Shown: piece after piece, positions 36,121 to 37,403 of the stretch | Position numbering within the stretch: position 1 is the first letter of the stretch | Layout: the number at the start of each line of letters is the position of its first letter | Virus record (IMG/VR): IMGVR_UViG_2654587996_000002 | Source: a virus | Lineage: Duplodnaviria; Heunggongvirae; Uroviricota; Caudoviricetes | DNA length: 37,878 bases | Strand: one strand, 5' to 3' | Notes under the pieces: generated by a model | Databases searched by the model: none | What the model was told of the DNA's origin: nothing | What the model saw: only the letters and a program-made list of their open reading frames with translations | Position numbers and translations under genes: made by a program

Positions 36121-36152
36121 ACAAATCGAATCGATCGTTTTTGTCGATCGAT
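36121..36152. promoter_or_regulatory. GATC-containing palindrome upstream of com-like gene (candidate Dam-sensitive operator, by analogy to Mu mom control region)
   Basis: AATCGATCG-TTTTTGT-CGATCGATT: perfect 9-bp inverted repeat carrying two GATC sites, about 45-75 bp upstream of the com-like start. Confidence 0.4.
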
Positions 36153-36196
36153 TAGGCGAGAAAGATATCATCAACAAAGCAGGAGGTTATGCGGCC

Positions 36197-36382
36197 ATGT
36201 ATCGAAACATACGGTGCCGACACTGCAATAAGCTACTGGCACGGGCCAGTTTCAGCTATCTGGAAGTAAAATGTCCGCGCTGCAAAACCCTCAATCAAAT
36301 CACATCTCAGAGCGCCACAGAGCACCCCACATACACAAGGAAATCCTGCCGTGGGGAACAAGAAACATTACTTTCAGTCTGA
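36197..36382 (+). CDS. com: Com-like zinc-finger translational activator
   Basis: MYRNIRCRHCNKLLARASFSYLEVKCPRCKTLNQ has the CxxC...CxxC arrangement and N-terminal similarity to Mu Com (recalled MKSIRCKNCNKLL...RCPRCK); AGGAGG RBS; 3' end overlaps start of the downstream modification gene as com does with mom. Confidence 0.8.
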   Translation: MYRNIRCRHCNKLLARASFSYLEVKCPRCKTLNQITSQSATEHPTYTRKSCRGEQETLLSV

Positions 36383-37403
36383 TAAGTCACTAACCTATGG
36401 TTCAGTATGCAGTGGTATTGAAGCTGCGACAGTAGCCTGGAGCAATCTTGGCTGGAAAGCCAGATGGTTCAGTGAAATAGAGGACTTCCCGTCAACACTT
36501 CTTTCATATCGCTGGCCCCATATACCAAATCTTGGTGATATGGCTTTGCTTGCGCCTCGTATCAGGGATGGGCTTATTGAAGCACCAGATATTCTTGTAG
36601 GTGGAACTCCGTGTCAGGCATTCAGTATGTCAGGCAAACGAAAAGGCCTTTCAGATCCACGGGGGCAGTTAACACTGTCTTTTGTTGAACTGGCGAATCA
36701 GATAGATACCGTTCGGGCATCGCTCAATAAATCCCCCTCAATAATCGTATGGGAAAACGTCACAGGAGTTTTAAGTAGCCATGACAATGCATTCGGTCAT
36801 TTTCTTGGTGCGCTGGCCGGAGCAGGTTGCGCATTACAGCCAGCAAGGAAAAGATGGGCAAACGCTGGTGTTGTGTCTGGACCATCGCGTATCGTCGCCT
36901 GGCGAGTACTTGATGCCCAATATTTCGGAGTCGCCCAGGCTCGCAGAAGAGTGTTTGTTGTGGCAAGTGCTGGAAAAAGGCTCGATCCCGGAAAGGTATT
37001 ATTTGAGTTCCCGCCTGTGTCGCAGGGCGATAAAAACTATTACGGAAAGAAGAAAAAATCCGAATCCCTTCTTGATCAAGGCATTGAAGGAAAATTGCAC
37101 CGATATTGCCTTGAAGCATTGCCAAAACGAACAGGCACAGTAATAGCTGGCTATAACGGAACAACTAACCAGGACATGACTATGTCTGGTGGGCTCATAG
37201 TTGAAAGAGTGCCATATTCAAGGGTTCGTAGGTTGACGCCAACCGAATGCGAGAGGCTACAAGGTTTTCCCGATGGATATACAGATATTCCATGGAAAAA
37301 TTCATCTCCAGCTCATCGTTATAAGGCCATTGGAAATTCAATGCCTGTACCGGTCATGAAATGGATTGGTCGAAGAATACAGGAAGCGTTAAACGAAGTT
37401 TAA
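36351..37403 (+). CDS. DNA (cytosine-5)-methyltransferase, GTG start overlapping com-like gene
   Basis: C5-MTase motifs: motif I-like YGSVCSGIEAA, motif IV GGTPCQAFS, motif VI IVWENV, motif VIII QARRRVFVV, motif X KAIGNSMPVPV. First in-frame ATG lies downstream of motif I, so GTG 36351 is the likely start. Confidence 0.85.
   Translation: MGNKKHYFQSDKSLTYGSVCSGIEAATVAWSNLGWKARWFSEIEDFPSTLLSYRWPHIPNLGDMALLAPRIRDGLIEAPDILVGGTPCQAFSMSGKRKGLSDPRGQLTLSFVELANQIDTVRASLNKSPSIIVWENVTGVLSSHDNAFGHFLGALAGAGCALQPARKRWANAGVVSGPSRIVAWRVLDAQYFGVAQARRRVFVVASAGKRLDPGKVLFEFPPVSQGDKNYYGKKKKSESLLDQGIEGKLHRYCLEALPKRTGTVIAGYNGTTNQDMTMSGGLIVERVPYSRVRRLTPTECERLQGFPDGYTDIPWKNSSPAHRYKAIGNSMPVPVMKWIGRRIQEALNEV

Follow-up and report, generated by a model that had tools for sequence, protein, structure and literature searches.

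The stretch of DNA analysed here (37,878 nucleotides (nt); IMG/VR record IMGVR_UViG_2654587996_000002; hereafter the window, with position 1 as its first letter) carries near its right end two overlapping plus-strand genes, com (36197..36382) and an orphan C5-cytosine DNA methyltransferase gene (36351..37403). Its matches identify the window as a Mu-like (Sp18-type) transposable prophage of Escherichia coli CI5, inserted in yfcU, and place the two genes at the prophage right end (37567). Positions 35700-37878 are 100% identical to the CI5 chromosome, and tblastn located Mu proteins across the window in Mu order (Ner, transposase A/B, Gam, GemA, C, Lys, head and tail proteins, and Gin). An earlier note on this DNA had proposed that a Com-like gene overlaps, at its 3′ end, a Dcm-type C5 methyltransferase that starts on GTG and has all major motifs, and that a perfect 9-bp inverted repeat carrying two GATC sites lies upstream; the searches and alignments described below bear out each of these proposals.

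The com gene encodes 61 amino acids (aa) from an ATG, with a Shine-Dalgarno sequence, AGGAGG, at 36181-36186. By homology its product is a Com-family zinc-ribbon translational activator: it matches the Pfam family Zn_ribbon_Com (PF10122, E=5.8e-13) and the PHROG families 'gpCom control of modification' and 'translational regulator', and it is 48% identical to Mu Com. Cys7, Cys10, Cys26 and Cys29 of the window protein align with Cys6, Cys9, Cys26 and Cys29 of Mu Com, which are the zinc-binding residues there (PMC3299994). The last 32 nt of com (36351-36382) overlap the methyltransferase gene, which occupies the mom slot and encodes 350 aa from GTG 36351, the earliest possible start in its frame. 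A profile search of 36351-37403 matched PF00145 over positions 5-323 of the 324 in the hidden Markov model (E=1.2e-42), and the protein also matches TIGR00675 (dcm) and phrog_116 (DNA methyltransferase, E=2e-86). Motifs I, IV, VI, VIII, IX and X follow one another in canonical order, and PCQ (IV), ENV (VI), QxRxR (VIII), motif IX (RRLTPTECERLQGFPD) and GNS are invariant in alignments of homologues. The variable region is short, at ~85 aa, and in an AlphaFold model the catalytic core has a predicted local distance difference test score (pLDDT) of ~90.

Full-length homologues of the methyltransferase, at 63-79% identity, are found in E. coli, Salmonella, Citrobacter, Klebsiella and Pectobacterium, with 1584 sequences in one Salmonella cluster. 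RefSeq labels 36351-37403 an intact 'DNA cytosine methyltransferase', and both genes are annotated plainly. The +1 frame of the gene contains a methyltransferase-looking stretch (IPERYYLS...), and we considered whether the gene might be a frameshifted pseudogene; this was ruled out by conservation of the 350-aa frame from end to end across these homologues, and by substitutions that favour the annotated frame outside the overlap between the two frames. The effector matches PF00145 and not the Mom family, PF25680, which is what the effector of a sibling prophage matches (E=2.4e-77). Because the effector is not Mom, the locus, which would work like Mu com-mom, is not a strict com-mom operon.

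In Mu, the mom GUG start sits in the stem of a translation inhibition structure (Nowacka et al., 2019; PMC6483171), and Com binds a short hairpin just 5′ of it. SELEX gave GAG(N)2CC(N)2-3GAG(N)2CC as the Com motif, with CC(N)2-3GAG proposed as the loop motif (PMC6483171). The window mRNA has a predicted Com-binding site at 36310..36328 (+), assigned by motif match and by homology to Mu. Its bipartite motif, GAGCGCC-ACA-GAGCACC (36310-36326; CC-ACA-GAG core at 36315-36322), is the sole match on both strands of the 37.9 kb (0.26 expected), and the site is positionally homologous to the native Mu 19-mer target GAAUGCCUGCGAGCAUCCC, with which it shares 13 of 19 bases by manual count. Directly adjoining it is a predicted translation-inhibition hairpin (36325..36356, +), whose stem joins CCCCAC (36325-36330) to GUGGGG (36351-36356) and so has the GUG start in its 3′ arm; a Shine-Dalgarno-like AAGGA (36337-36341) is partly paired by an inner GGA/UCC stem. 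ViennaRNA returned the same structure as minimum free energy and as centroid fold for both 36296-36385 and 36310-36375, with -13.7 kcal/mol for the 66-nt segment containing the hairpin; Mu folds into an equivalent UCCCACGG...UUGUGGGA hairpin. No Rfam family matches the region of the Com site and hairpin.

Both RNA elements recur in other com operons. The CCCAC...GUGGG hairpin is also present in Mu, in E. coli com-mom prophages, in the com-dcm locus of Salmonella and in Escherichia phage Chuche, and the bipartite Com element is present in the Salmonella and Chuche operons as well. A common module, GAGCA(C/U)CCCAC...GUGGG, stands before payloads of three unrelated kinds: Mom, an N6_N4 methyltransferase (Chuche) and, in E. 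coli and Salmonella, the C5 methyltransferase. Chuche (L022, 2330-3434) has all four elements, namely the GATC pair, com, the Com motif and the GUGGGG hairpin, in front of its N6_N4-type methyltransferase gene; since this phage is P2-like and not Mu-like, the control module moves between phage types.

Upstream of com lies a regulatory block (36064..36196, +) that is near-identical to that of the E. coli com-mom prophages and contains the paired-GATC inverted repeat AATCGATCG-N7-CGATCGATT (36129..36153). The 9-bp arms of the repeat (36129-36137 and 36145-36153) are 100% complementary across a 7-nt spacer, and its two GATC sites (36133-36136 and 36146-36149) are 13 bp apart, start to start. The repeat occurs once in the window even when 3 mismatches are allowed (0.02 expected), and CGATCG occurs 4 times in the 37.9 kb against 11.8 expected, two of the 4 being in the repeat. 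We compared five divergent com operons (the window, E. coli com-mom, Salmonella com-dcm, the P2-like phage Chuche and Mu): the CGATCG-N7-(C)GATCGAT core and its 13-bp spacing are invariant among them while the flanks have diverged to a mean identity of 57%, which argues for function. The window pair aligns to two of the three GATC sites that regulate mom in Mu, namely those nearest com.

A scan of the plus strand for sigma-70 consensus promoters gave no canonical site, as expected of an activator-dependent promoter. Candidate -10 hexamers are AAAGAT (36161-36166) and TATCAT (36166-36171); with either of them, the repeat would overlap the -35/spacer region. Read on the minus strand (36153-36129), the repeat and an accompanying T-run scored as intrinsic-terminator-like, and no minus-strand gene ends there. 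A role for the repeat as a general late-promoter operator was ruled out by its single occurrence in the window.

The boundary between the conserved control region and the methyltransferase is sharp. Between 36064 and the last letter of GUGGGGAACA (36351-36360), sibling E. coli com-mom prophages match the window at 93-98% identity; they diverge thereafter, and the annotated mom start in these siblings is the same GTG as 36351. Similarity resumes at ~37467-37472 and continues as far as the right end, where 94-97 of 107 nt agree. The 5′ junction therefore falls at ~36360-36365, within 10-15 nt 3′ of the GUG start, and the 3′ junction at ~37467-37472, about 100 nt inside the phage right end. On the evidence of this near-identity up to 36360 and the renewed match from 37467, a cassette of ~1.1 kb (36361..37466, +), comprising the methyltransferase body and ~65 nt of 3′ sequence, has been exchanged by recombination just 3′ of the start codon, replacing the mom gene that occupies this interval in the siblings. 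The base composition of the cassette carries no foreign signature. The earlier note had suggested that the regulatory architecture stayed in place when the effector was exchanged, and that RNA folding might reveal a start-sequestering hairpin like that of mom. Both ideas stand: the siblings share the upstream block, com, the hairpin and the right end with the window and differ in the cassette only, and folding puts GUG 36351 in the stem of a structure equivalent to that of Mu.

The two halves of the operon differ widely in abundance. Of 5426 complete E. coli genomes, 233 have the block 36064-36362, made up of the upstream region, com and the beginning of the following gene, and among the matches listed a Mom-family gene stands behind it in nearly all genome records; the methyltransferase body (36400-37400) is present in 10 of the 5426. 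A Mu-like prophage of Salmonella has the gene order gin-com-dcm, with a methyltransferase that is 68% identical to that of the window and also starts MGN..., so the com-dcm fusion is not a one-off. The closest relatives of the enzyme that lack com (70% identity) lie behind Q antiterminators in lambdoid phages and in Pectobacterium phage ZF40. An unrelated, low-GC viral contig of 62 kb (L094, 1250-2880) encodes a Com homologue (E=3.5e-13) and, beginning 11 nt after the com stop, a C5 methyltransferase from this family that is 472 aa long; just 5′ of the methyltransferase ATG there is a CC-AG-GAG motif, and that gene has a nested +1 open reading frame (ORF) of its own (1835-2221). The com-mom siblings carry an extra ~400-500 bp with a minus-strand pseudogene between a small hypothetical gene and the com upstream block (L002, 2343-2852; L003, 2498-2773), a segment that the window (36020-36064) does not have.

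The methyltransferase gene of the window also contains a nested ORF, f1 (36781..37143, +), which lies wholly inside it in the +1 frame and runs for 120 codons from an ATG. Its conserved C-terminal module (~36949-37095) reads LLWQVLEKGSIPERYYLSSRLCRRAIKTITERRKNPNPFLIKALKEN. A tblastn search with the f1 peptide matched 76 phage records, and in gp27 of ZF40 (L012), in P1 dmt (L013) and in a Vibrio phage methyltransferase the match likewise lay in the frame +1 to the annotated gene. We fetched 80 viral homologues, located motif VIII in 74 of them and retained 49 as non-redundant. The consensus of the 74 reads ...PNISEWPNDAAVCSLSQVLE.GSIPQRYFLS..ACAGILRRAEKRGK.LP..L..AL...., and in 73 of the 74 a stop codon follows within 5-34 codons of the consensus segment. 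Within a stretch from about codon -60 to codon +40 relative to motif VIII, none of the 49 non-redundant homologues has a stop in the f1 frame. Stops number 2.4-5.8 per 100 codons there in the +2 frame, and 2-7 per 100 codons in the f1 frame itself elsewhere in the gene. Most of the 49 have an ATG 79 codons before motif VIII, formed by constant use of AAT/GAT in the A[N/D]AID of the main frame; the window and its Salmonella relative have a later f1 start, 51 codons ahead of motif VIII.

The pattern of substitution changes along the overlap. In motif VIII the most variable codon position is the third of the annotated frame (f0); in the next 25-50 codons it is the first position of f0, which is the third of f1. 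Among 22 phylogenetically disjoint nearest-neighbour pairs, motif VIII favours f0 by 20:1 (p=2e-5) and the block that follows favours f1 by 18:1 (sign test, p=8e-5). Over codons +24 to +50 after motif VIII, amino-acid identity is 0.77 and then 0.50 in f1, compared with 0.57 and then 0.26 in the annotated frame. The same trend toward f1 is seen within the six-member subfamily of the window, and downstream of the overlap substitutions favour the annotated frame by about 4:1. AlphaFold places two helices at f1 residues 77-119 (pLDDT 75-86), and the helical part of the f1 model coincides exactly with the disordered part of the f0 model. The C-terminal ~45 aa of f1 are more strongly constrained than the f0 sequence that they overlap. 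By these measures, f1 is conserved and under purifying selection across the phage methyltransferase family, P1 Dmt, ZF40 gp27, L014 and L023-L102 included, and it is likely translated.

Comparisons of the f1 peptide with known proteins returned little. Pfam, NCBIfam, PDB sequences and a Foldseek search of the PDB gave no match, PHROGs gave one marginal match, and hhalign detected no similarity between f1 and the methyltransferase profile at motif IX (probability 0.1%). Motif IX is in the main frame at all 53 phage loci that could be classified, which indicates that the gene is not normally split; the same result rules out a split, M.AquI-like form as the norm for this family. Searches for other methyltransferases with the +1 peptide in frame gave only 75 short unnamed ORFs with a word index and 4536 representatives with an exhaustive profile. 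The ten representatives that we looked up were all singleton clusters, mostly from metagenome or sequencing-run assemblies, and one protein (P0201) is visibly frameshifted at PCQ. In a few rare 'beta-like' proteins, also singletons (P0219, P0224, P0241, P0207 and P0197), the +1 peptide is in frame with the variable region and motifs IX-X; these may be frameshifted copies or genuine split methyltransferases.

From the identities of the parts, the junctions of the swap, the conservation of the control elements across payloads and the predicted hairpin, we think it likely that the locus is the right-end modification operon of an Sp18-like, Mu-type prophage, in which an orphan C5 methyltransferase cassette has replaced mom and Mu-type control has been retained. 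In the mechanism that we propose, a Mor/C-family activator encoded at 8642-9049 (PF08765, E=6e-31; 40% identical to Mu C) would turn on the com promoter during late lytic growth, and Dam methylation of the paired GATC sites would modulate it. Com would be translated first and would bind CC-ACA-GAG at 36315-36322, opening the adjacent hairpin and allowing ribosomes to start at GUG 36351. The methyltransferase would then modify replicating phage DNA and so shield it against restriction in the next host. The gene would stay silent in the lysogen, sparing the host damage by its own methylcytosine-dependent restriction. E. coli has methylcytosine-dependent restriction systems that attack foreign 5-methylcytosine (m5C) patterns, and for this reason tight silencing in the lysogen would make sense.

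Several observations weigh against this picture. Residues 221-281 of the methyltransferase, which lie between motifs VIII and IX, are modelled as disordered (pLDDT <50; alignment of 36 sequences). The hairpin scores only -1.8 to -2.0 (z) against shuffled sequences, its stem is invariant across the loci compared and so gains no support from covariation, and the small hairpin at the Com site is predicted with only 2 base pairs. In the four non-Mu operons, 47-48 nt separate the GATC pair from the com ATG (47 in the window), versus 73 nt in Mu, and neither the third, farthest-upstream GATC of Mu nor the Mu C-site sequence appears in the window alignment. The promoter geometry is therefore unlike that of Mu, and OxyR/Dam control may work differently here or not at all. 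In Mu, Dam methylation of the GATC sites prevents repression by OxyR, according to the account of Sun and Hattman (1996) given in PMC7549136. Dam-sensitive control of the GATC pair in the window is plausible and is the least secure part of our model.

We weighed three other explanations of the operon against the mechanism above. The com gene and hairpin could be leftovers, with the methyltransferase translated independently of Com as an ordinary lysogen enzyme, constitutive or leaky. The 70%-identical enzymes that work without com, 3′ of a Q antiterminator in lambdoid phages, make this conceivable, as does a predicted hairpin of only moderate stability (-13.7 kcal/mol for the 66-nt segment around it). 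However, the cassette junction keeps the Com-site and hairpin module to the nucleotide, and the module is also kept in the diverged Salmonella com-dcm locus and with the third payload in Chuche. The com gene is still an intact ORF with all four cysteines, and GTG 36351, the sole start codon available, is inside the stem. We consider leftovers improbable. It is still less probable, in our estimate, that the methyltransferase is a decaying or inactive passenger that has lost, for example, its target-recognition domain, which would leave the locus with no function in modification. The poorly modelled residues 221-281, the short variable region and the rarity of the cassette (10 of 5426 genomes) would fit such decay, but the catalytic motifs are all intact and invariant, the full-length frame is conserved end to end in several genera, including the cluster of 1584 Salmonella sequences, and in the part of the gene downstream of the overlap the substitution pattern is about 4:1 in favour of the annotated frame. 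The third explanation concerns the GATC repeat, which might be unrelated to Dam and OxyR and serve instead as the operator of another regulator, such as the C homologue, or as a minus-strand intrinsic terminator. With a -10 near 36161-36171, the repeat would span roughly -45 to -20, a region that in the Mu mom promoter we take to be bound by C and not by OxyR; the terminator-like hairpin and T-run on the minus strand and the absence of the farthest-upstream Mu GATC point the same way. Against this, the GATC core and its 13-bp spacing are conserved in five operons, one of them that of Mu, for which Dam/OxyR control has been shown according to work cited in PMC7549136. A general C operator should moreover recur, and the repeat is not in other late-gene regions of the window; nor does any minus-strand gene end at it. 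A repeat unconnected with Dam and OxyR is thus somewhat unlikely, though a more serious contender than either leftovers or decay.

A fourth proposal extends the operon model with its swapped cassette and retained Mu-type control instead of competing with it. The product of f1 could work with the methyltransferase in the way that the beta polypeptide works in M.EcoHK31I, or could regulate the enzyme, which would make the effector in the mom slot a module with two products; we put the chance of this at slightly short of even. Its grounds are the open f1 frame in all 49 homologues, set against 2.4-5.8 stops per 100 codons in the +2 frame, the ATG kept by AAT/GAT usage in most of them, and the excess of f1-synonymous over f0-synonymous substitutions after motif VIII. 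The AlphaFold models, in which f0 is disordered where f1 is helical, agree with it, and M.EcoHK31I provides a precedent, its beta being encoded in another frame of the alpha gene (PMC2836561). Other features speak against it. No strong Shine-Dalgarno sequence was found before the f1 ATG (a core 4-mer is present in 14 of the 49 homologues, and in the window an AGGAG sits 12 nt 5′ of the ATG), and f1 matches nothing in Pfam, NCBIfam or PDB, has one marginal PHROG match and shows no likeness to motif IX by hhalign. The annotated frame, unlike M.EcoHK31I alpha, keeps its own motif IX, and the f1 of the window is the most divergent member, with a shorter N-terminus than most. The full form of the claim is a little more tentative: that the gene of this phage C5 methyltransferase family encodes a second, +1 protein of ~120-165 aa, which if translated would be a widespread counterpart in nature of M.EcoHK31I beta, with a C-terminal two-helix module of ~45 aa that is more constrained than the overlapping frame. 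A literature search found no paper on a nested ORF in phage C5 methyltransferases.

The prophage itself can be delimited on the right. Positions 37467..37567 (+) form a conserved right end (attR side) that is common to com-mom prophages at other chromosomal sites. Related prophages match the window up to 37567 and then enter different host genes, which identifies 37567 as the right end of the transposable prophage and 37567/37568 as the prophage-host junction. In three independent insertions the right end (37556-37567) reads ...CGCCGCGCTATA and terminates in TA; it differs in this from the end of phage Mu, ...GCGCCGCTTCA, and from the CA terminus usual for Mu-type transposable phages. The host side (37568-37878) is a truncated, frameshifted yfcU fimbrial usher gene (Pfam Usher), and the CI5 fimbrial genes downstream of yfcU are also annotated as frameshifted. 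On the phage side, a gene 3′ of gin (33081-35129) encodes a 682-aa protein with a SASA/sialate-O-acetylesterase-like domain (E=1.6e-11) and DUF6645 (E=1.4e-65). After it come small DUF1378 and DUF826 genes and a 66-aa ORF (35812-36012) of an unannotated family; phage Mu itself has none of these four genes. A strong terminator-like hairpin (35743-35768, +) lies after the DUF826 gene, ~430 nt 5′ of com, and would set the preceding genes apart from the com operon.

The Mu com/hairpin switch behaves as a portable expression unit, into which recombination 3′ of the start codon plugs different DNA-modifying enzymes; the payloads seen behind the com gate are Mom, adenine methyltransferases and now a C5-cytosine methyltransferase. 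With isogenic sequence as far as the start codon, the com-mom and com-dcm prophages form a natural pair for testing recognition of RNA by Com and control by GATC and Dam. The same pair bears on why a cytosine methylase needs strict silencing, for which the expected reason is m5C-dependent restriction in E. coli. If f1 is real, the annotation of thousands of phage methyltransferase genes misses a protein, and the architecture of M.EcoHK31I, so far a one-off, would be a general design. If translated, f1 might serve as a trans-acting subunit, or as a regulator, on which the activity or specificity of the enzyme depends, and since f1 lies downstream of the predicted Com-gated start, the two products could be controlled differently.

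Exchange of the payload behind com has already been published for adenine methyltransferases, and the idea is in that respect not wholly new. N6-adenine methyltransferases stand behind com in B3 (ORF47/48), FluMu (HI1522.1/Hin1523), Pnm1 (Nma1821) and Hia5, and Com-type regulation has been proposed for them (Drozdz et al., 2012; PMC3299994). These loci are like the window in having a com homologue followed by an unrelated methyltransferase in the mom position. They differ in that their payloads methylate adenine (an amino modification) and are in some cases non-specific, whereas a C5 enzyme exposes the host to methylcytosine-dependent restriction. We also found com with D12-class methyltransferase genes in Azonexus and Acinetobacter; a scan of genome contigs for neighbours of com gave only 3 loci, two of them with D12 adenine methyltransferases, which are too few to count payload types. 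A search of the literature found no paper describing a C5-cytosine methyltransferase behind com.

Compared with com-mom of Mu, the window locus is likewise the rightmost operon of a Mu-type transposable phage, its com 3′ end overlaps the start of the effector, a Com target, predicted in the window, is situated 5′ of a hairpin with the GUG in it, a GATC pair lies upstream, and the phage encodes a late activator of the Mor/C family. The effectors are of different families (Mom, PF25680, in Mu; a C5 methyltransferase, PF00145, in the window), and the control regions differ in their number of GATC sites (three in Mu, two in the window), in the distance from GATC to com (73 versus 47 nt) and in the Mu C-site sequence, which is not recognisable in the window. 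The hairpin loop is 7 nt in Mu and 20 nt with an inner stem in the window. The Sp18-type E. coli com-mom prophages (L002 and L003, and including those of O157:H7) are much closer, with 93-98% nt identity from the upstream block to the GUG and over the right end, and with the same backbone genes for DUF6645, DUF1378 and DUF826; they differ in having mom (245 aa) in the slot and the extra minus-strand pseudogene before the com block.

Finally, the enzyme and its nested ORF have relatives outside com operons. P1 Dmt, ZF40 gp27 and the late-region enzymes of lambdoid phages are 50-70% identical to the window methyltransferase over motifs I-VIII and have the same nested +1 ORF. In contrast to the window gene, theirs lie behind Q-type antiterminators or in the P1 dmt operon, have neither a com gene nor a start-codon hairpin, and sometimes encode fusions to a Dam domain. 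M.EcoHK31I resembles the window in its described architecture, a C5 methyltransferase gene that contains an out-of-frame ORF for a small polypeptide. The whole of its beta is read from another frame of the alpha gene, and the first 42-67 residues of beta are dispensable (PMC2836561), the functional part being C-terminal. The two systems part at motif IX, which beta supplies to an alpha that is missing it in M.EcoHK31I, and which the main frame of the window gene keeps in canonical form.

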